31,030 bases of DNA, taken from the NCBI GenBank assembly GCA_010024215.1, contig RGHK01000001.1, forward strand, positions 1-31,030, given 5' to 3'. This stretch comes from Pseudomonadota bacterium (GTDB taxonomy: Bacteria; Pseudomonadota; Gammaproteobacteria; Magnimaribacterales; D2472). Both the position numbers and the translations under genes were made by a program. Under the pieces are notes generated by a model that saw only the letters and a program-made list of their open reading frames with translations, was not told where the DNA came from and made no database searches. Shown piece by piece: positions 8,333-18,671 of the stretch (positions are counted from its first letter, which is position 1; the number at the start of each line of letters is the position of its first letter).

Positions 8333-10510
8333 CTATTTACTTGATGCTGCATTGGGCCAAGACATAGGAATTTGTTGTTGAGGATTAAAGACCATTGGGC
8401 CCTCTACAGGAAATGCTTTTGAAGCTTGCTCAATTTCTTTCTTGCTTAGATGCTTGCTTGGAATTAGTTTGAAAACATCAAGACCTCTTGTGATCTCAGT
8501 GCCATACACATAACCATCGTAGTAATACGCAGACCAATATCCACCAGTTGTTAAAATATCATCGTTGATAGGCCCTCTATCAAAATAAGCTATTTCTATA
8601 GGGTTAGATGAATCGGTAAAATCCATTATTGAAATACCACCCTGGTACCATGCTTGAACAAAAATATCACGATTAGGTATTGGTATTATTGAGCCGTTAT
8701 GAGCAACACAATTCTCTGTTTCAACCTGTGGAGCAGGCATTTTGTAATGACTTCTAAATTCAAGTTTATTATCAACAATATCGTAAATTGCATCAGCACC
8801 CCAATCTAAAGGATCCCATGCTCTGCATCTTGCACGACCGCCACCGCCCCATTCATCAGTAAAGATTACTTTTGTACCATCATTATTGAATGTTGCTGAA
8901 TGCCAATAAGCAAAACCAGTGTCTGTTACAACATCCAGCCTCTTTGGGTTATATGGGTCGGTAATATCAAAAAGTATTCCATTGCCTGAGCACGCACCAG
9001 CAGCAATATTAGAAGATGGAAATACTGTAATATCATGACATTGATCGGTTCTATTTGTATCTTGCGTGTCATCTCCATGATCGCCTCCAACCCATAATCC
9101 TCCTAATGCTCCAGTTTCAGGGTCAGCAAAGACAGTAGGGCTGCTAACAATTTTTGATTTTGATGGATCAGATATAGGTATTTCTATTACATCAATTCTA
9201 AATAAAGCTGTTCTGTTATCTCCAGGAATATTTCCAATACATTCTTCCATTTCTTCATCATCTCTGACTCCTGCAGTGCCAGAGTTATAAATAATAATGT
9301 TATTATCTTTAGTTGGACCAGCTACCACAGAATGAGTGTGTGAGCCTCTACATGTTTGAACAGCACCAACTTGTCTAGGATTTTTAAGGTCAGAAATATC
9401 AAAAATTCTAATTCCTCTAAATCTTTCTGGACTTGCATCACTTCCTACACCCATTGAGCCGCAATCTATACGACTTCTATTTTGCTCAACAGACATAATT
9501 AATAAATCACCAACAATCGATACATCACCTTGTCCGCCAGGGCATACTACAGAGGATATTAGTTTTGGAACACCATCGTTTTTAATTTTATACATATTAA
9601 AACCATGGTAATTACCAGCAACTAAAAGATCATCTTTAAAAGCCATATCTGTATTAGCAAAACTCATAATAGGAGACTTTCTGGCTCTTGATTTCTCTAA
9701 CGTTGTTAATTCTCTGTCTTCATCAAGATCTTTTGTTGGATCTTCAACACCTTTTGCTTCTGGGTCGTCTGGATCATAGAATCCTACAGGTTTTCTTAAC
9801 GAAGCAATTAATTCAAGATTTAAAATTGCTTCATCTGCAATAAAGAGACCAGGACTTAAGCCCGCTCTTGGGTCATCAGAAAGACCTACAGCAATTTTAT
9901 TCATTCTTTCAATTTCAACACTTTGATCATTAACAAGATCGGAAACAAATTCATTTAAAAGAGGGTCATTGGCAGAACCAGGAAATTTCTTTAATTCATC
10001 AACCATCTCCAAGGCACCGTCATGATGAGCTATCATTAATTGAAGAAATAATCTGTCAAAATCTGTGCTTTTTGAGTTTTCAAGATCTTTGAGTTGTTTT
10101 GGTGTTGCCATGCCTGACATTTTCATATGTATATCATGATCATGTCCCATATTTGACATCATTTCTTCTCGTGATTTAAGCCAACTTTCCATAAAATTAA
10201 TCTCATCTTCTTGAGAAACATCAATTCTATCTGCCAAATCAATAATGGTTTTGTTATTTGTTCTTTTGTCGGCTAATTTAGACATGAATATAGCTTGGTT
10301 ATGGTGGACAATCATGCCATTTAAGAAATCTATATCTGCTTGTACATAACTTGATCCTGCAATATTAGATGCGATTTCTGGATCAAGAATTTTTGATTTT
10401 TCACCTGGAGCTCCAGGTTGAATAATTGGAGCATCCTCAGCAAAAGAAGAAGATGTTACAAAACTTAAAAATGAAAATATAAATATATAGTTATGAATTT
10501 TTTTCATCAT
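8333..10510 (-). CDS. Exported DUF305 (CopM-like) plus LVIVD-type beta-propeller fusion protein
   Basis: Signal peptide, DUF305 signatures MIVHHNQAIFMS and FLQLMIAHHDGALEM, then propeller repeats (CPGGQGDVS, RIFDISD, CRGSHTH, CHDI, YWHSA, DEWGGG, CVAHN, WYQGG). AAGGAG SD upstream. Confidence 0.8.
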   Translation of the reverse strand: MMKKIHNYIFIFSFLSFVTSSSFAEDAPIIQPGAPGEKSKILDPEIASNIAGSSYVQADIDFLNGMIVHHNQAIFMSKLADKRTNNKTIIDLADRIDVSQEDEINFMESWLKSREEMMSNMGHDHDIHMKMSGMATPKQLKDLENSKSTDFDRLFLQLMIAHHDGALEMVDELKKFPGSANDPLLNEFVSDLVNDQSVEIERMNKIAVGLSDDPRAGLSPGLFIADEAILNLELIASLRKPVGFYDPDDPEAKGVEDPTKDLDEDRELTTLEKSRARKSPIMSFANTDMAFKDDLLVAGNYHGFNMYKIKNDGVPKLISSVVCPGGQGDVSIVGDLLIMSVEQNRSRIDCGSMGVGSDASPERFRGIRIFDISDLKNPRQVGAVQTCRGSHTHSVVAGPTKDNNIIIYNSGTAGVRDDEEMEECIGNIPGDNRTALFRIDVIEIPISDPSKSKIVSSPTVFADPETGALGGLWVGGDHGDDTQDTNRTDQCHDITVFPSSNIAAGACSGNGILFDITDPYNPKRLDVVTDTGFAYWHSATFNNDGTKVIFTDEWGGGGRARCRAWDPLDWGADAIYDIVDNKLEFRSHYKMPAPQVETENCVAHNGSIIPIPNRDIFVQAWYQGGISIMDFTDSSNPIEIAYFDRGPINDDILTTGGYWSAYYYDGYVYGTEITRGLDVFKLIPSKHLSKKEIEQASKAFPVEGPMVFNPQQQIPMSWPNAASSK

Positions 10511-10682
10511 CTTCTATTATCTCCTTGGATTCACCATCAATAATGTTGTTTGTAGAATGTTTTTGAAATCTATTAATCCTATTTGGCCTATCTAATTGTT
10601 TTGATGATGCTTTCACTTTAGCTAAGTTAAAAAAAACAAAAAGTGAAATTATTGCTAAACCGCCAAAAATTATAGTATTCAA
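10491..10682 (-). CDS. Small single-pass membrane protein, hypothetical
   Basis: 63 aa, TTG start 4 nt after the upstream stop, N-terminal hydrophobic helix (IIFGGLAIISLFVFFNLA), charged tail. Fills the gap in a co-directional run. Confidence 0.6.
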   Translation of the reverse strand: MNTIIFGGLAIISLFVFFNLAKVKASSKQLDRPNRINRFQKHSTNNIIDGESKEIIEDDEKNS

Positions 10683-10686
10683 AGTA

Positions 10687-11433
10687 TTACCTGCTTCTCA
10701 TTTTAGCAAGCAGCCTTAGTATTTCTAAATAGAGCCAAATGAGTGTAACCATTAAAGAAAAAGCTCCATACCATTCCATATATTTAGGCATTCCTTTATC
10801 TGCACCATCTTCAATAAAGTCAAAATCAAGAACTAGATTCAAAGCAGCAATAGATACAACAAATATGGAAAATCCGATGCCAAAAAGACCATTAGAATGA
10901 ATTAATGGTATACCAGCTCCACCAAATAAACTCATCAAGATGCTTACAAGATAAAGCAAAGCTATACCCATAGTTGCTGAAAATATCATTAATCTAAAGT
11001 TTTCGGTTGGCTTAATTAATCCACTTTTATAACAAAATAATAATGAGGCTAGAATCCCAAATGTTAAACCAATGGCTTGAATGCCTATACCAGGAAATTG
11101 AGCCTCAAAAAATAGAGTAATACCACCCAAGAAAATACCTTGCGAGAGTGCATATAGAGGTGCAGTAGAACCAGCTTTTTCAGGCCTCCTAAAAATAGTA
11201 ACGAACCCTAGTATCATTCCGATGATCCATGAAGGAATCAGAAGTGCTGGTATATTCCATCCAATAAATGCTCCAGCAAAACATAAGCTAAGTAAAATGC
11301 CTGTTTTGTTAACAGCTCCATCAAGGGTCATTCTTTCTTCTAAGGGGATATCATAAGTTGATCCACCAAAGTTTTTTGTAAATGCTGGGTTACCAGATCT
11401 ACCGAATGTATTTAATGCAGAGTGTTTTGACAT
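10687..11433 (-). CDS. Bax inhibitor-1/YccA family membrane protein
   Basis: SGNPAF, MTLDGAVNKT, PLYALSQGIFLG, LNLVLDFDFIE, YMEWYGAFSLMVTLIWLYLEILRLL. AAGGAGG SD upstream. Confidence 0.92.
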   Translation of the reverse strand: MSKHSALNTFGRSGNPAFTKNFGGSTYDIPLEERMTLDGAVNKTGILLSLCFAGAFIGWNIPALLIPSWIIGMILGFVTIFRRPEKAGSTAPLYALSQGIFLGGITLFFEAQFPGIGIQAIGLTFGILASLLFCYKSGLIKPTENFRLMIFSATMGIALLYLVSILMSLFGGAGIPLIHSNGLFGIGFSIFVVSIAALNLVLDFDFIEDGADKGMPKYMEWYGAFSLMVTLIWLYLEILRLLAKMRSR

Positions 11434-11503
11434 ACAAGAATCCTCCTTATGTATGATATGTATATTAAATAGTTATGGCCTTAAAAACTTATTTAAAGTT
11501 ATT

Positions 11504-12538
11504 TTATAAGTTTTTTATCCATTTACCTATCAGTTCAATAGCTTCAGTATGCTCAAGAGCTCTTCCTGATTCTGGCATCATAACTCCTGGATCAAGCGAC
11601 TTCATTCTGTAAAGTAAGATAGATTCCTCAGGATTACCAGGCACAATAGAGTATTTAAGATTATTGCTTCCTCGTCCTGTTGCGATAGGTTTTTTGTAAA
11701 TACCTAAGTTAATTTCTCTTTTTTCGATGTAGTCAAGATAGAGACCGCTGGTATCTGCCGAACCGCCTTCAATATGACAATGAGCACAATTTATATCCAA
11801 GTATGATCTTGCTCTTTGATCAACAGTCTTAGACTCATCTGCCCAATTTATCATTTTTACTTCATTAAATTTATTATCAATCCATCCTTGGTCATGCCAT
11901 TTAGCGAGCTGATTAAAAACTCCATCATCATAAACATACTCTTTATCTAGGTTTCTTAATTTAGGTCCAATAGGAGTTATAGTCTTATCTATTTGATGAC
12001 ATTCTTTGCATTGATTAATATTTGGAACCCTATATCTGACATCAACATAATCTCCATTATTATTGATAAATTTAGTAGAGATGGTCTTGCCAGCAACTGT
12101 CAAATAAGCTTCATCTTGATTACTATCCCATACATAACTAACATTTATCCATTCTCCATTTCTTTTAAGCAACAGCCTAGTCTCCAACAATTGTGCAGGA
12201 ATTTCAGAATTTTCATGCTCATTAAGATATGCAAATGTTTTAATAAGTGCCGTTCCTTCAGGAAAATCAAACACTTTATTTGATCTATATTTAGCAGCTT
12301 TACTCTTTGGAATATATATGAACCTTAACTTATCTGTATAGTCTGAAAAAAGTGGACTTATTAAATCATATGGCAAAACTCCCTCAGCAGGTATTTGAGC
12401 GCTCATATTTTTAAAAAAACCAAATTCAGATAGTTTTTTTGGTGCTTTTTCTATAAAAATGAGCTCATCTTGCACCTTAGATTCAACAAACTGGATAGAG
12501 ATACAGGAAATAATTAAAATTTTTTTAAATAGACTCAT
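11504..12538 (-). CDS. Exported diheme c-type cytochrome, SO2930/HNE_0200 (TIGR03806-like) family
   Basis: Two CXXCH motifs (CKECH 11996-12010, CAHCH 11774-11788) and family motifs LSEFGFF, YDLISPLFSDY, FPEGT, ETRLL, RARSYLDINCAHCH, MMPESGR. Start reassigned to ATG 12538, which gives a signal peptide and overlaps the upstream stop. Confidence 0.85.
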   Translation of the reverse strand: MSLFKKILIISCISIQFVESKVQDELIFIEKAPKKLSEFGFFKNMSAQIPAEGVLPYDLISPLFSDYTDKLRFIYIPKSKAAKYRSNKVFDFPEGTALIKTFAYLNEHENSEIPAQLLETRLLLKRNGEWINVSYVWDSNQDEAYLTVAGKTISTKFINNNGDYVDVRYRVPNINQCKECHQIDKTITPIGPKLRNLDKEYVYDDGVFNQLAKWHDQGWIDNKFNEVKMINWADESKTVDQRARSYLDINCAHCHIEGGSADTSGLYLDYIEKREINLGIYKKPIATGRGSNNLKYSIVPGNPEESILLYRMKSLDPGVMMPESGRALEHTEAIELIGKWIKNL

Positions 12539-13760
12539 CGAATACAACAGGAGATAGCGGGGTAATTTTTGCTTTATATTTTTCATAGTCTCTTTCAACA
12601 GGATCTATAAAAGGAAGCATATATTTAATTGGATTAATTGTTAAAAATGAAGCAGAGCCATTATCTCCAAGTATTATTTTTTCTGATTCAGGCTGACCAA
12701 AAACCATTTGTTTAAATGGAACAATGCCATCCCAAAAAATATCTGGCATATTTTGATTCGATATTTCATATAAAAATTTTGCTAAGTCTCCTGTTTCAAT
12801 GTCAGGATTATTACCAGATTTTGCAAATCTATTATTATGAATCTGTATGGCTCTAGGATGCGGGTTATAATTTTCATCCTCAGTTTCATAAGGATAAGTT
12901 ACTATTGCTATATTAATAGTATCGTTGCCCCCAATATCATTATCAAAAATTTCAACATTTGAGCTTGCTTGTATAACTATTCCGGTTCCTCTTGGAACTT
13001 CTCCAACAATGTTACCCTCAGGAGCAAAATTATCTGTATTGTTATTTATTGATTTGTTTCTGAATACTCTTACATGATGACCGCCTTGTTGAGGGATATC
13101 AGGTAAATCAAATACTAAAATACCTCCGGTATTATTTTCAGCATGATTATCAAAAACATCGGCATAGTATGAATTTTCAATTTCAATGCCTGCAACATTA
13201 AATTCAGCTCTGCTATTTTTTACAATGATGTTTTCAGATTGACCTACATAAATACCAGCATCAGAAGCGCCAATGGCAACACATGAATCTATAAGAACAT
13301 TTTTTGATTCCACTGGATATAGGCCATAAGCTCCATTTGATTCATCTGGTCCATTGGTCCATTCTGTTCTAATTCTAATAAAACTTATTCCATTAACTCC
13401 TTTGACTTTAATTGCATCTCCTTTAGCATCCTCAACTGCAAAATCAATGAGCCTAACATTATCTGATGTCACAGAAAGACCTTGTGCTCCAGATTGTTGT
13501 TCTTTAAAAGATAGAATGGTTTTTTTCATACCATCTCCTTGAAGAGTTACACCATCAACATCAATAGAAAGGCTATCTTCGAATTCATATAATCCTTCTG
13601 ATAGATGAATAATATCTCCAGAATTTGCAAAAATTAGAGCTTCCTGAATTTCAGTATATGAGTCTTCAGAGGGTTTAATGACTATAGTTTCACTGAAACT
13701 AAAAGAGCTTATGAGTATTAAACAAAGAAAAAATCTATATTGCTTCAGGTATTTTATCAA
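12525..13760 (-). CDS. Exported right-handed parallel beta-helix protein (TIGR03805-like)
   Basis: TTG start and signal peptide, then repeats GDAIKV, NGAYGLYPV, GASDAGIYVGQS, NVAGIEIENS, NTGGILVFDLP, NNTDNFAPEGNIV. Adjacent to its usual TIGR03806-type partner. Confidence 0.88.
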   Translation of the reverse strand: MIKYLKQYRFFLCLILISSFSFSETIVIKPSEDSYTEIQEALIFANSGDIIHLSEGLYEFEDSLSIDVDGVTLQGDGMKKTILSFKEQQSGAQGLSVTSDNVRLIDFAVEDAKGDAIKVKGVNGISFIRIRTEWTNGPDESNGAYGLYPVESKNVLIDSCVAIGASDAGIYVGQSENIIVKNSRAEFNVAGIEIENSYYADVFDNHAENNTGGILVFDLPDIPQQGGHHVRVFRNKSINNNTDNFAPEGNIVGEVPRGTGIVIQASSNVEIFDNDIGGNDTINIAIVTYPYETEDENYNPHPRAIQIHNNRFAKSGNNPDIETGDLAKFLYEISNQNMPDIFWDGIVPFKQMVFGQPESEKIILGDNGSASFLTINPIKYMLPFIDPVERDYEKYKAKITPLSPVVFDESI

Positions 13761-14841
13761 AGCTTTCTAGAGGTTTTTTTAACTCTGTCCAATCACATTC
13801 AAAGTCATCAGGTGCATGCTCATATTCAAGCAGACCGAGAGCTTCAAACTTTGGCCTCACATTATCTGTTAGTAGTCCTATTCTTGATAGATTTGGTATT
13901 ACTCTTGAAAATAAAAAGTTTCTAAACATATCGAATGTAGCAGTATTAAGCTGAAATTCTCTTGCTTCTTCTGCACTCATTCCTAAAAATTTTTGTTCAG
14001 ATTTAGTATTTATTAGTCTTTCTCTTGAAATTACACAAGCTTCATAAGCAAATTCTGCTCTGTCTTCAATTTCTTCTGGTGATAAAGTTTTAATATAGTC
14101 TTCAAGATAATTAATTCCAAAAGTCACATGCCTAGCTTCGTCTCTTACAACATAATGTAATAGTTGTTTTAATAGGGGGTCTTTTGTTATTGTTTTAAGC
14201 ATTTGGAATGCAGCTAAAGCTAAACCTTCAATGATAATTTGCATCCCAATGAATTTTAGATCCCAGCGCTCATCCGTTAAAATTTTATCTAGTAACTGTT
14301 TTAGGGCTGGATTGATTGGATAATGAATTCCAATTTTTTCTTGGAGGTACCGATTGAAAACTTCAACATGCCTAGCTTCATCAAAAGTTTGAGAAGCAGC
14401 ATAAAGTTTTGCATTATATGTTGGTGCACATGATGCTAATTGTGATGCGACCAGTAGGGCACCTTGTTCACCATGTAAGAATTGACTCATTAATTCAGCA
14501 GTAGAATGCCTATCAAAAAGGATTTTTTCTTCTTCAGTAAGATTTTGGTAAGCCTCAAGTGCCTCATGTGGTAATTGTTCATCCGGGTCAATTAATTTTT
14601 CATCAGCTGGATGCGTATAATCCCACTTTAAGTCAATGGATCCATTCCAATTAAGCTCTTTTCCAAGTTCATAGAGTTTTTTGATTCTGTTATCAGCAAC
14701 GGTGTAGTCCCAATTGTAGGAGCCTGTTAGTGGAGTATTAAAGATTTCAACAACATCCTCAACTTGTAATGGTGTTAAATTTACTTCGTCATCAAAATAT
14801 AATAAATCTTCTGGTGGACCTGCTTGTTTTGTAATTTTCAT
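13735..14841 (-). CDS. Cytoplasmic ferritin-like diiron-carboxylate protein (AurF/desaturase/decarbonylase-like fold), function unknown
   Basis: Diiron ligand pattern HGEQGAL ... DEARH ... IEGLAL ... DEARH. AGGAG SD upstream, no signal peptide. Confidence 0.85.
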   Translation of the reverse strand: MKITKQAGPPEDLLYFDDEVNLTPLQVEDVVEIFNTPLTGSYNWDYTVADNRIKKLYELGKELNWNGSIDLKWDYTHPADEKLIDPDEQLPHEALEAYQNLTEEEKILFDRHSTAELMSQFLHGEQGALLVASQLASCAPTYNAKLYAASQTFDEARHVEVFNRYLQEKIGIHYPINPALKQLLDKILTDERWDLKFIGMQIIIEGLALAAFQMLKTITKDPLLKQLLHYVVRDEARHVTFGINYLEDYIKTLSPEEIEDRAEFAYEACVISRERLINTKSEQKFLGMSAEEAREFQLNTATFDMFRNFLFSRVIPNLSRIGLLTDNVRPKFEALGLLEYEHAPDDFECDWTELKKPLESFDKIPEAI

Positions 14842-14861
14842 TCGCTTTTGTTCTCCTACAA

Positions 14862-14884
14862 TAATGTTTACAGTGTAAACATTA
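14862..14884. promoter_or_regulatory. Perfect 23 bp palindrome, probable transcription factor operator
   Basis: TAATGTTTACA-G-TGTAAACATTA: 11 bp arms, 1 bp centre, 21-43 bp upstream of the diiron gene start. No U tract follows on the minus strand. Confidence 0.75.
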
Positions 14885-14903
14885 ACTAATTGTAATATAC
14901 AAA

Positions 14904-16667
14904 TTAATTCTTGAAAAGTTTTGTTAACTCTTCTAAGAGAACCTCACCAAGCTCTTCAGCTCTATTTATAGTTATTGCATTTTTGTAATATTTAGTTACA
15001 TCATGACCTATCCCAATTGCATGTAATTCTATTGGACTGTCATTTTCGATATAAGAGATAATTCTTTTTAGGTGATTATCTAGATATTCCTCACCATTAG
15101 TTGATAGAGTACTATCATCTACAGGAGCACCGTCAGATATAACTATAATTATTTTTCTATCTTCATTTCTTTTAAAAAGTCTTTCGTGTGACCAGGAAAG
15201 TGCCTCACCATCAATATTTTCTTTTAAAAGACCTTCTCGCAACATAGCTCCAAAGTATTTTCTTGCTCGTCGCCAGCTATTATCTGCACTTTTATAAATA
15301 ATGTGTCTTATGTCATTTAACCTACCTGGATTAATAGAGCTGCCGCTATTTATCCATTTTTGTTTTGAGTCACCACCTTTCCAATTTTTTGTAGTAAATC
15401 CCAAAACTTCTGTTTTTATTTGACATCTTTCAAGTGTGCTTCCAATAATATCTGTACAAATTGCTGCTAAACTTATTGATCTACCTCTCATAGAACCAGA
15501 ATTATCAATAAGCAGCGTGACAACAGTATCTTTAAAATTATTTTCAGTTTCTTGTTTATAACTAAGCGGATGGCCTGGTTCAGCAATTACTCTGTGCAGT
15601 CTTGCAGTATCGAGTAGTCCCTCATCCGAGTTAAAATTCCAACTAGTATTTTGTTTTGCCAAAAGGAGTCTTTGAAGTCTATTAGCAAGCTTTCCTATTG
15701 TTGTTTGGTGTGGTTTTATCAAATTATCTAACTGTGTCCTTAGACGAACTGCTTCATCAGCAGTAGTTAAATCTTTCGCTTCAATTACTTCATCAAACTC
15801 GGTCGTAAAAATAGAATAATTATTATTTTCTATAAAGTTATATTCATTATTTGGATATGACAAAGCATCTATTTCTTCATCGATAGATATTCCATCAGAA
15901 ACCTCGGATGTTTGGTCGACAACATCATCAAAATTAATGTCTATATCTTCAAGAGAGTTTTCAGATTCACTTTGATCACTATCATTTGTATCCTCATCTT
16001 CACTTTCAATAGAGTCTGAACTTCCAGGAGGTTCAAAAGATGCATCTTCCTCTTCTATACTATTATCTTTATCTGACTTAAGAAGTTTTATGGCTTTAAG
16101 AAATTCTATAGAAGCTTCCTCAAATTTATTTTGATCATTAATAGCATTGATTAATTGATCTTTAATTTTTTTAAGACTCTTTCCATCATAATTTTCAGAA
16201 AATTCCTTAAGAATTTTTTTTGAGGAAGGTGCCAAATCAAATTCAAATAAATCTTTTAACCAAAGATTTGAGCAAAAGGCCAAATATTGAGGTGATTTTT
16301 TATCTTCAATCTCAATACCTTCAAGGTATCTGATAATATTTGTTTTTGATCCCTTGTATATATTTGATCCCAAAATTTCTACCCTAGACATTTCTAGCTC
16401 ATTAAAGACAAGTCTTGCTGGCAGAGTAAGAGAAATCTCTGGCCTAGTTTTATGAAATAAATACCAAAAGGCTTGAAAATCTGATTCACCTCGCCATTTT
16501 GCTAACTCTTTTGTTGAGCGAGGAATCGATGAAATTGTTGCTTGATTTGGAGAGGGTGGTCGAGAAGCAATACCATTTTTTGAAGAGATATTTTTGTTTT
16601 TAGATATAGATTTGATAGAAGAAAGAGCTGCTTCGTGAAGCTTATCGCGATTTTTGACCCAGCTCAT
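14904..16667 (-). CDS. cobT: CobT-like vWA protein (cobaltochelatase subunit family)
   Basis: CobT N-terminal motifs (RGESD, SRVEILG), acidic linker, [74 protein letters not shown]. Confidence 0.9.
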
Positions 16668-16673
16668 AATTAA

Positions 16674-17642
16674 TTACTTAGGATCAATATCAATATCAAA
16701 GCACCTTTGAAAATATTCATTGATAATTGGTTTTTCTAGATCATCACACTTATTTAAGAATGTAAGTTTAAATGATCCCATTACGTCTTTAAAAATCTTA
16801 TAGTTTTGAGCCCAAGAGATTACAGTCCTTGGTGACATTAGAATTGATATATCACCATTTGCAAATCCATTTCTTGTAAGGTTGGCAAGTTTTATCATAT
16901 TTTTAACAACTTCTTGATTTTTAGATGACTTAAACTCACTCACTTTTGATAAAACTACTTTTAATTCTTGGTTCACATCAAGATAATTTAATGTTGATAA
17001 AATATGCCATCTGTCCATTTGACCCTGATTAATTTGTTGTGTTCCATGATATAAACCTGTCATATCTCCAAGGCCAACAGTATTTGTCGTTGCAAATAAT
17101 CGGAATGAAGCATGAGGTTTGATAACTTTATTTTGATCTAAAAGTGTTAACTTTCCCTCAACCTCAAGAATTCTTTGTATAACAAACATCACATCTGGTC
17201 TTCCAGCATCATACTCATCAAATACCAATGCAACTGGATTTTGAATAGACCATGGCAACAAGCCTTCTTGAAACTCAGTTATCTGTTTACCATCTTTCAG
17301 TTTAATTGCGTCTTTGCCAAGCAAATCAATTCTACTGATATGGCTGTCTAAATTAATCCTAACGCATGGCCAATTCAATCTTGCTGCAACCTGTTCTATA
17401 TGTGTTGATTTACCTGTTCCATGAAAACCTTGAATCATTACTCTTCTATTATGATTAAAGCCAGCAAGGATAGACAATGTTGTATCTTTATCAAAAATAT
17501 ATCCCTCATCTATTTCAGGGACCCAAGCAGTCTTTTCTTTAAAACCCTTTACAGATAATTTTGAATCAATTCCAAAAGTTTCTGAAACCTCAAATTTATG
17601 ATCTGGTTTATTAGGTAATTCAATGTTTTTATTAATAGTCAT
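16674..17642 (-). CDS. cobS: CobS-like AAA+ ATPase (MoxR-related)
   Basis: Walker A GFHGTGKST, RLNWPCVRINLDSHISRIDLLGKD, Walker B FDEYDAGRPD, GLYHGTQQINQGQMDRW, MSPRTVI. Confidence 0.95.
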   Translation of the reverse strand: MTINKNIELPNKPDHKFEVSETFGIDSKLSVKGFKEKTAWVPEIDEGYIFDKDTTLSILAGFNHNRRVMIQGFHGTGKSTHIEQVAARLNWPCVRINLDSHISRIDLLGKDAIKLKDGKQITEFQEGLLPWSIQNPVALVFDEYDAGRPDVMFVIQRILEVEGKLTLLDQNKVIKPHASFRLFATTNTVGLGDMTGLYHGTQQINQGQMDRWHILSTLNYLDVNQELKVVLSKVSEFKSSKNQEVVKNMIKLANLTRNGFANGDISILMSPRTVISWAQNYKIFKDVMGSFKLTFLNKCDDLEKPIINEYFQRCFDIDIDPK

Positions 17643-17780
17643 ATGTAATCTTTATAAACTTAGATGGCCATGATACTTTTTGAAATATGAAAGTTCTAGT
17701 TTTTTTCTAAACCATGTAAGATGAGCATTAATAATTAAATCATTAATTTGCATAATTTTGAACCTTAGGCGGTATTAAGA

Positions 17781-18671
17781 ATGAATGAAAAAAGAAACCT
17801 ATTTGAAAAATCATTAAACCTTTTTACATTGAATAGAGTTGATAGAGACATTTATAGCTGGAATGGAAAAAATGTTGGCTGGGGAAGGGTCTTTGGAGGT
17901 CAAGTAATGGCTCAGACTCTTATTGCTGCATATAAAACTATTGATGTAGATCATTATGCACACTCTTTTCATTCATATTTTTTAAGACCAGGCGATATGG
18001 ATAAGCCGATTATTTTTACTGTTGATAGAATTAGAAATGGTAAAAGTTTTACCACCAGGAACGTTAAAGCATTACAAGATGGTGAAGCAATATTTAGTTG
18101 CTCAATTTCTTTTCAAAAAGATGAAGAGGGTCTTGAACATGAAATATCTATTCCGGATGTTCCTGCTCCAGAAGAACTTAAAGATGAACTTGAAATAAGA
18201 GAGATTCTTCTAAAAAAACTTAATATTGATAGTAAAGATATGCCAATGTTTTTAAGACAAAGGGAAATTGAAATGCGACCTGTAGAAATTCAAGATTATT
18301 TTGAACCAAAACGCATGCCTCCATATAAAAATACGTGGATTAAGCCCAAAGGAACAATTCCAGACGATCAAGTAATTCAGCAAGCTTTTTTATTGTATAT
18401 ATCTGATATGGGTTTATTAGCAGCTGCAAATAATTCTGTAGGAGTAAATTTTTTAACCAAGAATCTTCAAAATGCTAGTCTTGATCATGCAATCTGGTTT
18501 CATAAAAAACTTGATTTAAATGATTGGTTTTTATATTCAATTGACAGCCCAATCACACGCAATGCTAGGGGTTTCTCAAGAGGATCAATATTTTCAAAAT
18601 CAGGTGAATTGGTTGCATCATGTGCTCAAGAGGGCCTAATTAGACTCTGGCCAGAGTCAAAAAAGAAATAG
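17781..18671 (+). CDS. tesB: Acyl-CoA thioesterase II
   Basis: GRVFGGQVMAQ, HSFHSYFLRPGD, RNGKSFTTR, ISDMG, ASLDHAIWFH, AQEGLIR. Confidence 0.96.
   Translation: MNEKRNLFEKSLNLFTLNRVDRDIYSWNGKNVGWGRVFGGQVMAQTLIAAYKTIDVDHYAHSFHSYFLRPGDMDKPIIFTVDRIRNGKSFTTRNVKALQDGEAIFSCSISFQKDEEGLEHEISIPDVPAPEELKDELEIREILLKKLNIDSKDMPMFLRQREIEMRPVEIQDYFEPKRMPPYKNTWIKPKGTIPDDQVIQQAFLLYISDMGLLAAANNSVGVNFLTKNLQNASLDHAIWFHKKLDLNDWFLYSIDSPITRNARGFSRGSIFSKSGELVASCAQEGLIRLWPESKKK

Follow-up and report, generated by a model that had tools for sequence, protein, structure and literature searches.

A diiron protein gene and a beta-helix/dihaem cytochrome pair brought together in one putatively TetR-regulated transcription unit in a single SAR86 lineage

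In this study we analysed a window of 31,030 nucleotides from a SAR86 genome (contig RGHK01000001.1 of assembly GCA_010024215.1) in which three minus-strand genes, encoding a diiron protein, a TIGR03805 beta-helix protein and a TIGR03806 dihaem cytochrome, each overlap the next, head to tail. We think it probable that, in a single lineage of SAR86, two independent modules have been combined into one operon under TetR repression. The first module would be a cytoplasmic diiron oxygenase of R2-like fold, an old resident of a cobS-cobT-diiron locus, and the second a periplasmic TIGR03805/TIGR03806 pair that behaves as a self-contained unit moving around genomes. Since the diiron gene and the pair lie apart elsewhere, what we describe is an arrangement local to this lineage rather than a novel machine of three parts. 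SAR86, which ranks among the most abundant heterotrophs in surface seawater, is regarded as a specialist in lipids and hydrophobic compounds, and the diiron family and the families of the pair are both widespread and without a characterised member.

The open reading frame of the diiron protein occupies 13735-14841 of the minus strand (368 aa, ATG at 14841). That of the beta-helix protein, 12525-13760 on the same strand, begins with a TTG at 13760, the only canonical start that retains the signal peptide. The cytochrome frame is open on the minus strand over 11504-12598 but the gene is likely to cover 11504-12538, with the ATG at 12538 as the likely start; translation from there yields a signal peptide that includes a lipobox-like IISC. 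The diiron and beta-helix genes share 26 nt (13735-13760) and the beta-helix and cytochrome genes 14 nt (12525-12538). Overlaps of -26/-23 nt and -14/-11/-8 nt are shared by nearly all 42 SAR86 species with the same gene order. The pair is without a promoter region of its own here, its first start codon lying inside the diiron gene. Upstream, the cobT stop at 14904 leaves a spacer of 62 nt before the diiron ATG. A consensus scan located a promoter-like element at 14889-14917 on the minus strand, with a -35 sequence, TTTTCA, within the last cobT codons and a -10 sequence, TACAAT. The -10-like element is kept across SAR86 species, immediately upstream of a perfect 23-bp palindrome (14862-14884, unstranded; 11-bp arms and a 1-bp centre) that begins 5 nt past the -10 box and is a candidate TetR operator. 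A Shine-Dalgarno sequence, AGGAG (14853-14857, minus strand), lies 11 nt ahead of the diiron ATG. Both overlaps, the shared start with its Shine-Dalgarno sequence and the palindrome had been reported in a first-pass annotation of this DNA, and all were found where it had placed them.

Seawater RNA bears directly on the extent of the transcript. A single metatranscriptome contig, covering 12177-14392, bridges both gene overlaps. Judged at contig level, where depth is a crude measure, coverage in run X5 was 2-4 for cobT, rose to 80-95 in the 5' part of the diiron gene, was 42 across its 3' part and the beta-helix gene, and fell to 15-28 across the cytochrome gene, so that depth steps up at the cobT/diiron spacer, to more than 20 times that of cobT over the diiron gene, and drops from 5' to 3'. 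In two of the four RNA runs there are also contigs that join cobT to the diiron gene. Expression of the operon in seawater is clear, and on this contig-level evidence the three genes are co-transcribed in this lineage, with a promoter ahead of the diiron gene. The idea of one compact, regulated transcription unit was thereby borne out within the SAR86 clade, in which both the overlaps and the operator are conserved.

The palindrome is not peculiar to this locus. Its core occurs at four other places in the source genome, against none for a reversed-pattern control: two copies lie in the intergenic region that separates a tetR gene from a divergent RND pump operon, and the other two precede a second RND operon and tolC. 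In sister genomes the operator precedes the gene for a small PAN-domain protein, which is followed by a gene for a patatin-like phospholipase. Most species of the clade retain it ahead of the diiron gene, whether the pair is present or absent, and no copy was found ahead of the pair in other lineages. The same palindromic operator is therefore present both at a tetR/pump spacer and at remote target promoters, as in a TetR efflux regulon, and we infer that it serves a TetR repressor as operator here and that two RND pumps and tolC are under the same repressor. According to this model, a TetR-family repressor would bind the 23-bp palindrome, over the transcription start, and block the diiron promoter, while the same operator would govern the repressor's own RND pump, the second pump, tolC and, in sister genomes, the PAN-domain and patatin-like genes. 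A hydrophobic ligand would presumably release the repressor and turn the operon on; with the operator shared, the diiron operon would be switched on together with efflux. The tandem operators in a divergent tetR/pump spacer, with remote copies at a second pump and at tolC, recall local TetR-family efflux repressors with palindromic operators, such as AcrR-acrAB-tolC and Tn10 TetR with its tandem tetO. Unlike those of AcrR and Tn10 TetR, however, the SAR86 regulon appears to take in genes outside efflux, namely the operon of the diiron gene and the pair and the PAN-domain and patatin-like genes of sister genomes.

Could the palindrome instead be an RNA or DNA hairpin, serving as a weak terminator of cobT or as a stabiliser of the mRNA 5' end, with no protein bound to it? 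In some species both arms have changed with the symmetry kept (for example TTAGCA...TGCTAA), a few have a different palindrome in the same position, and RNA contigs tend to stop near it. We nevertheless hold this to be highly improbable, as it is one and the same 17-19-nt sequence, rather than any hairpin, that recurs at the tetR/RND, second RND and tolC promoters of the source and sister genomes. Moreover the stem is A/T-rich throughout with a loop of 1 nt, a terminator scan found none, and the palindrome sits past the -10 box rather than ahead of it.

Among 41 genomes of the SAR86 order, 38 carry the diiron gene and 26 the pair. The diiron gene directly follows cobS-cobT in all genomes examined from three of the four families sampled (f1, f2 and f3), in some loci with a tandem duplicate of itself, and in f2 and f3 the pair is located away from it. 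In the fourth family, f4, the diiron gene adjoins tesB. This constancy could mean that the true unit is cobS-cobT-diiron, the diiron protein being a client of an orphan CobS/CobT AAA+/vWA pair that loads or repairs its metal site, with the beta-helix and cytochrome genes incidental to it. The three genes are co-directional as well as adjacent in every f1, f2 and f3 genome examined, and the window contains no cobN gene. Such a role is very unlikely, however, given the promoter and operator that the diiron gene has to itself in the 62-nt spacer, the excess of its RNA over that of cobT in run X5, the tesB context in f4, where cobS and cobT gave no match in the fetched flanks, and the lack of cobS/cobT in the fetched flanks of all 59 loci of diiron homologues from outside SAR86.

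Of 80 SAR86 species that have the pair, 42 show the order cobS-cobT-diiron-pair-BaxI; in the other 38 its neighbours are MacB-type ABC efflux genes or, upstream of the pair, genes for a fatty-acid hydroxylase and a DUF4399 protein. In a beta-helix tree the diiron-adjacent genes fall into a single clade (support 96/88), and one change of context is enough to explain the adjacency. A single relocation brought the pair to a position immediately downstream of the diiron gene, where the beta-helix start codon came to lie within the diiron 3' end, and from then on the pair has been transcribed from the diiron promoter. Six genomes of the adjacency clade have cobT-diiron-BaxI with the pair absent, and in one genome a decayed beta-helix gene adjoins an intact diiron gene. 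Beyond SAR86, the pair was found in the fetched flanks of none of 59 diiron loci, and the diiron gene near none of 20 pair loci. In a sample of 400 genomes from across the phylum, 32 carried the pair (about 8% of the sampled Pseudomonadota genomes), 12 the diiron family and five both, in which the two were never adjacent.

The first-pass annotation had proposed that the diiron gene leads a functional three-part system, and the comparison of co-occurrence and neighbourhoods, set beforehand as the refutation test, speaks against this: adjacency is confined to one SAR86 clade and to one event, co-occurrence elsewhere is rare, and other SAR86 families have the pair in unrelated contexts. Some observations do favour that view, taken as a pathway that evolved in and is specific to this clade, in which the diiron protein would modify a lipid-like substrate and the pair would bind or oxidise the same or a related molecule. 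The overlapping starts are conserved across 42 species, promoter and operator are held in common, and in other SAR86 lineages the pair is again found near efflux genes or a membrane fatty-acid hydroxylase; in the phylum sample, the pair occurs in 5/12 diiron-positive genomes as against 27/388 of the others. We still judge this pathway unlikely. Those 42 species represent one relocation, the diiron gene persists with no adjoining pair in the six clade members and throughout f3 and f4, 27 of the 32 pair-carrying genomes in the phylum sample are without the diiron family, and adjacency is seen nowhere outside the clade. Direct contact is also impossible, as the proteins would reside in different compartments. 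The enrichment at genome level could be functional or could come from shared ancestry and habitat. Identical overlaps that go back to one evolutionary event are a warning that tight operon packing in streamlined genomes is no proof of a shared pathway. On the two-module explanation that we prefer, there is neither need for, nor indication of, an obligate biochemical hand-over linking the diiron enzyme with the pair. The beta-helix proteins within the adjacency clade have, though, diverged to about 64% identity with the overlaps retained, and therefore selection may favour co-expression; there may be a functional link between the diiron gene and the pair that is specific to the clade.

That the pair forms a unit by itself is suggested by several lines of evidence. 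It is the catalogued TIGR03805/TIGR03806 pair, as the first-pass annotation had recognised, with both HMM cut-offs exceeded (beta-helix protein 410 bits against 141.5, over model positions 1-314; cytochrome 371.7 bits against 313.3). The two genes are adjacent and co-directional in the window and at all 24 diverse loci examined, with N-terminal signal-like segments present, no other neighbour recurs in more than four of those 24, and at two loci the pair is fused into one protein (881 aa at L223 and 1019 aa at L241). The cytochrome gene encodes two haem motifs, CKECH (11996-12010, minus strand) and CAHCH (11774-11788, minus strand). Across 25 diverse homologues neither CxxCH motif varies, nor does one Met-Pro, and the protein is probably an exported, SO2930-family dihaem c-type lipoprotein. 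The beta-helix protein has a signal-peptide-like N-terminus and belongs to a parallel beta-helix family that conserves acidic and aromatic residues, and no Cys, His or Met. A model of the complex between the two scored 0.81 against 0.00 for the best of three controls, a value that 51 of 78 solved complexes attained, as did two of 108 mismatched pairs, and the region of the haem-1 motif and conserved residues of the beta-helix protein form part of the predicted interface. The two proteins are accordingly predicted to bind each other as a heterodimer. In the mechanism we envisage, electrons would pass between a substrate bound on the conserved acidic and aromatic face of the beta-helix, haem 1 at the interface, a His/Met haem 2 and the respiratory chain. 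The order of beta-helix before cytochrome, the export signals and the two CxxCH motifs are as in other TIGR03805/TIGR03806 pairs; what sets this one apart is its position behind a diiron gene and a TetR operator, a context confined to one SAR86 clade.

The diiron protein exceeds the gathering cut-off of the Pfam AurF model (PF11583; 46.3 bits against 29.6) and contains the motifs HGEQG, DEARH (twice) and IIEGL. Its putative ligands, E125, E155, H158, E205, E235 and H238, are invariant across 40 diverse homologues and make up the E/ExxH/E/ExxH set that ferritin-like diiron-carboxylate oxygenases carry on a four-helix core, and no signal peptide was found in it. By sequence it is a cytoplasmic ferritin-like (R2-like) diiron-carboxylate protein of a widespread, uncharacterised branch of Pfam AurF that comprises some 2,000 sequence clusters at 50% identity; its earlier description as a cytoplasmic diiron protein with a complete ligand set holds, with four Glu and two His invariant family-wide. 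The structure model is helical (pLDDT 85.4) and matches R2lox (Z 22.4), R2 (22.1), AurF (21.3), ADO (21.0) and CmlI (20.1); with the first four all between 21 and 22.4, none stands out. A profile search of PDB sequences gave R2lox as the best natural hit (2e-11), with an ADO-type protein at 8e-10. R2lox (PDB 4hr0, 7qbk), the top structural match, likewise has four Glu and two His at its site and shares an N-terminal LYxxxKxxxW motif with the SAR86 protein, which is about 50-80 residues longer and about 20% identical to it; Mn/Fe use and a Tyr-Val cross-link are features known from R2lox. R2lox binds a long-chain fatty acid, and we know of no physiological role for it.

Taken at its word, the Pfam name would make this an AurF/CmlI-type arylamine N-oxygenase, and AurF (2jcd) does align with the model over 290 residues. 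We find that assignment scarcely credible. Neither AurF nor CmlI was retrieved from PDB sequences by sequence or profile search at E <= 0.01, whereas R2lox, ADO and R2 were, and the AurF Z-score is not distinct from those of R2lox, R2 and ADO. AurF has a third His ligand, which lies one turn ahead of the last ExxH in a site of three His and four carboxylates. Only the two ligand His are conserved in the diiron family: position 231, four residues before E235, is Val, and the family alignment shows no conservation of H229. The SAR86 locus also lacks an aromatic-amine or secondary-metabolite context, and domain fusions of the homologues point to acyl chemistry.

These fusions join diiron homologues to an AMP-ligase, carrier domain and thioester reductase (A-T-R), to an ABC1/UbiB kinase or to FNR-type reductase domains. 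Together with the structural neighbours and the regulon, they make a lipid-type substrate a fair guess, and to that extent the earlier suggestion of a fatty acyl or hydrocarbon substrate stands; its support does not come from the tesB, PanK and hydroxylase neighbours that had been cited in its favour. The enzyme would oxidise a lipid-like molecule, for instance a fatty aldehyde or a fatty acyl thioester, with the help of O2 and an external reductase. ADO and BioE, which act on fatty aldehydes or acyl thioesters, are likewise ferritin-like diiron proteins with four Glu and two His, and the A-T-R acid-to-aldehyde module would supply exactly a substrate of that type. BioE is a diiron oxygenase that cleaves fatty acyl-CoA/ACP, and bioE is under a ligand-dependent repressor, of GntR/MocR type as against the TetR type in SAR86 (PMC12704756). 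ADO and BioE are, however, compact proteins of about 25 kDa from another sequence family, and the SAR86 locus has no biotin or alkane gene context.

Functional experiments are narrowed by the place of the diiron gene in an efflux regulon, by the acyl-activating and acyl-reducing fusions of its relatives and by the predicted autonomy of the pair as a heterodimer. The regulon might even be a coordinated response to toxic lipophiles of phytoplankton, such as free fatty acids or fatty aldehydes. The diiron protein would oxidise or deformylate these within the cytoplasm, export of the compounds or their products would fall to the RND pumps and TolC, and the recruited pair would carry out an oxidation of the compounds in the periplasm. 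We rate this as quite unlikely; if true, it would be the first physiological role for both the TIGR03805/TIGR03806 pair and the diiron family. A TetR regulator is the commonest neighbour of diiron homologues (10 of 42 loci), which is only a modest enrichment because TetR genes are common. Two of the diiron fusion genes also adjoin TetR genes, one of them followed by a gene for an enoyl-CoA hydratase.

The diiron gene and the beta-helix/dihaem cytochrome pair that follows it are best regarded as two autonomous modules that a single event in one SAR86 clade brought together under a putatively TetR-controlled diiron promoter. Every element that the first-pass annotation had listed for this three-gene stretch was present when the window sequence was checked. 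The window has a G+C content of ~32% and comes from an assembly of 1.12 Mb that is 82% complete. Its minus strand carries, in order, cobS (16674-17642), cobT (14904-16667), the gene for a diiron protein of 368 aa (13735-14841), that for a beta-helix protein of 411 aa (12525-13760), the dihaem cytochrome gene (11504-12538) and a BaxI-like gene (10687-11433), followed by a DUF305 fusion gene and then type II PanK; tesB lies upstream on the opposite (plus) strand. A -35/-10 pair, a perfect 23-bp palindrome (14862-14884) and an AGGAG motif precede the diiron gene in that order. The diiron and beta-helix genes overlap by 26 nt and the beta-helix and cytochrome genes by 14 nt, and overlaps of -26/-23 nt and -14/-11/-8 nt recur, with few exceptions, across the 42 SAR86 species sharing the gene order. 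The TTG at 13760 is the sole canonical start that provides the beta-helix protein with a signal peptide, and translation of the cytochrome from the ATG at 12538 yields a signal peptide in which IISC resembles a lipobox. The beta-helix protein matches TIGR03805 at 410 bits and the cytochrome TIGR03806 at 371.7 bits, both above the HMM cut-offs; these family assignments are firm, and the earlier identification of the pair as a catalogued unit holds. The diiron protein formally belongs to Pfam AurF (46.3 bits).

Gene neighbourhoods were analysed at three depths, namely the SAR86 order (41 genomes), SAR86 species, and beyond SAR86. Across the order the diiron gene was found in 38 of the 41 genomes and the pair in 26. 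In three of the four sampled families (f1, f2 and f3) the diiron gene lies directly behind cobS-cobT, and the pair adjoins it in f1 only, being found in f2 and f3 on other contigs or ~100 kb or more away. Among 80 species loci bearing the beta-helix gene, 42 have the arrangement cobS-cobT-diiron-pair-BaxI and 38 do not. In the context typified by the cultured strain HIMB1674, HlyD and MacB-type ABC efflux genes come after the pair. In that of the SAR86A type the pair is preceded by a fatty-acid-hydroxylase gene and a DUF4399 gene, the latter (L101:9452-9913) lying directly upstream of the pair and behind the membrane hydroxylase gene. In a maximum-likelihood tree of beta-helix proteins the diiron-adjacent copies form a single clade (support 96/88), for which one change of context would suffice, and the 42 species therefore count as one observation rather than 42. 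Six genomes of this clade have cobT-diiron-BaxI without the pair (loci L008, L009, L113, L114, L116 and L119), and in one sister genome the beta-helix gene is broken by four in-frame stop codons (G003:C1:62601-63527) with the diiron and cytochrome genes intact. In another sister genome, 64% complete, the diiron gene contains three stops (G017:C1:58528-59589) and no pair was found.

Beyond SAR86, a diiron profile built on 40 diverse homologues retrieved 59 loci spanning Halieaceae, Cellvibrionales, Hyphomonadaceae, Caulobacter, Myxococcota, Binatia, Streptomyces and others, and their flanks of up to 10 kb contained no match to the beta-helix protein, the cytochrome, cobS or cobT. An evenly drawn phylum sample of 400 genomes contained TIGR03805 in 32, the diiron family in 12 and both in five, in none of which the two were adjacent; nor was a diiron gene found near the pair at 20 pair loci taken from this sample. 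A recurrent partner of the pair was also sought across the phylum, at these 20 loci together with four from SAR86, and no neighbour occurred at more than four of the 24, the candidates being TonB-dependent receptors, PntB and AraC. The diiron gene thus rarely accompanies the pair elsewhere, the outcome that the first-pass annotation itself had taken as refuting its proposal. A new three-component redox system, as proposed there, is not supported; the neighbourhood analysis reveals no linkage outside the SAR86 clade and a single event within it.

The pair itself has a constant layout, the beta-helix gene always preceding the cytochrome gene and the two sometimes forming one polypeptide. Its proteins and the diiron protein belong to different cellular compartments. 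Across 25 diverse homologues the residues conserved in the beta-helix protein include Asp, Glu, Tyr and Trp; none of them is Cys, His or Met, and the protein is therefore unlikely to bind copper or iron by itself. The cytochrome, over a set of the same size, conserves both CxxCH motifs and a single Met-Pro, a pattern that would fit His/Met coordination of one haem, the other lacking an obvious sixth ligand. When the two mature proteins were modelled as a complex, the score was 0.81, against 0.00 for the best of three controls; 51 of 78 solved complexes and two of 108 mismatched pairs reach this mark. Binding of the beta-helix protein to the cytochrome is thereby supported, not shown, with a predicted interface that combines the region of the first haem motif with conserved beta-helix residues. 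Searching solved structures by sequence with either protein gave no match, and a literature search found no publication on the function of the TIGR03805/TIGR03806 pair.

The 17-nt core of the palindrome has four further sites in the same genome, at up to two mismatches, and a reversed control pattern has none. Two copies (L111:1471-1519) lie between a TetR-family gene (L111:846-1460) and an RND operon of adaptor and permease genes transcribed divergently from it. Two 19-bp copies (L109:1221-1239 and L110:1500-1518) account for a second RND adaptor and permease operon, with one copy upstream, and for a TolC-family gene, with one copy ~25 nt from its start. Together with the diiron promoter, these sites would define a small TetR regulon. 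Sister genomes carry the same set and, in addition, have the palindrome ahead of a gene for a 96-aa PAN-domain protein, followed by a patatin-like phospholipase gene, whose best NCBIfam match is a CBASS-type lipase, below the cut-off. In sister genomes G018 and G023 one or two copies lie ahead of the PAN-domain and patatin-like genes, behind which comes a TonB-dependent receptor gene (L245:3429-4895 and L247:3438-4828). In the clade with the diiron-pair arrangement, a DUF4399 gene adjoins the tetR gene of this regulon (L111:422-859, L244:2478-3020).

We read the palindrome as the probable operator of the TetR repressor encoded beside the first RND operon, overlapping the transcription start. 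A role as a hairpin is less likely, since the palindrome sequence itself repeats at unrelated promoters. Upstream of the diiron gene most species of the clade retain the putative operator, whether the pair is present or absent, always just 3' of a conserved -10-like box; no copy was found ahead of the pair in lineages that carry it apart from the diiron gene, or ahead of the diiron orthologues of f2-f4. Some species have variants at this position in which both arms are changed and the symmetry kept, and a few have a different palindrome there (L041, L043, L038, L089, L034, L036 and L046). Such variation suggests co-evolution of repressor and site, or else a structural role.

Fourteen metatranscriptome runs contain 72-79% of the window's sampled words, and contigs from four of them were placed on 10500-17800. 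In the seawater run X5 the depth climbs from 2-4 over cobT to 80-95 at the 5' part of the diiron gene; a jump of more than 20-fold from one gene to the next rules out contaminating DNA as its cause. At the level of contigs, this locates an active promoter to the spacer between cobT and the diiron gene. A single contig of depth 42 covers the 3' end of the diiron gene, the bulk of the beta-helix gene and the two overlaps, and the depth over the cytochrome gene is 15-28. Depth falls from 5' to 3' and nowhere rises again, a profile consistent with a single transcript that extends through the pair. Two of the four runs additionally have contigs reaching from cobT into the diiron gene. The diiron operon (12177-14852) is among the more highly represented parts of the locus in X5, and the putatively TetR-controlled promoter accordingly appears to be de-repressed in situ.

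The diiron family comprises 2,167 clusters at 50% identity (E <= 1e-3); the ligands E125, E155, H158, E205, E235 and H238 are invariant across 40 diverse homologues. The AlphaFold model (pLDDT 85.4) is confident except for a disordered acidic N-terminus. Its structural matches are R2lox (Z 22.4), RNR R2 (Z 22.1), AurF (Z 21.3), ADO-type proteins (Z 21.0) and CmlI (Z 20.1), with no clear front-runner. In a profile search of solved structures R2lox and ADO were the top matches and AurF did not appear among the hits at E <= 0.01. The best fold match in Swiss-Prot is the M. tuberculosis protein Rv0885 (TM 0.65-0.70), itself uncharacterised. A word-indexed homologue search was filled with near-identical SAR86 sequences, and the only name given was 'ferritin-like'.

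Fusion proteins are more informative than these structural matches. In several homologues of ~1,400 aa the diiron domain is joined to an AMP-dependent ligase, a carrier domain and a thioester reductase. One metagenomic gene of this kind (1,415 aa, L248:3347-8780) is followed by a sulfotransferase gene and has a TetR gene two genes upstream on the opposite strand; the locus looks like an uncharacterised lipid-modifying pathway. Other homologues are fused to an ABC1/UbiB kinase, in one case followed by an enoyl-CoA hydratase gene, or to FNR-type reductase domains. TetR genes adjoin both located fusion genes, and a TetR regulator is the commonest neighbour of stand-alone homologues (10 of 42 loci). 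A literature search for the combination of AurF-like protein, acyl ligase and reductase gave nothing functional. Because of the domain fusions, the TetR association and the efflux regulon, the diiron protein may use O2 to oxidise a lipophile such as a fatty acyl or a fatty aldehyde; the lipid substrate guessed at in the first-pass annotation survives, on better grounds than were originally offered. A functional analogue is the recently described BioE, a repressor-controlled ferritin-like oxygenase that cleaves acyl-CoA/ACP, although it belongs to a different, ADO-sized family (PMC12704756).

Patatin genes adjoin diiron homologues in Halieaceae. That these and the neighbouring TetR genes are orthologues of the SAR86 regulon members was considered and rejected, the TetR similarity detected being at HTH level only and none being detected for the patatins; the parallel is no more than thematic.

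An orphan cobS-cobT (14904-17642; L011-L017) immediately precedes the diiron gene in every f1-f3 SAR86 genome examined; no cobN was found within the window, and cobS-cobT was not seen beside the diiron gene at the f4 loci examined. Some f2 genomes have two tandem copies of the diiron gene behind cobT (L016:7305-9507, L017:7959-10159), with a third, more distant paralogue elsewhere in the genome, and f3 genomes have two copies.
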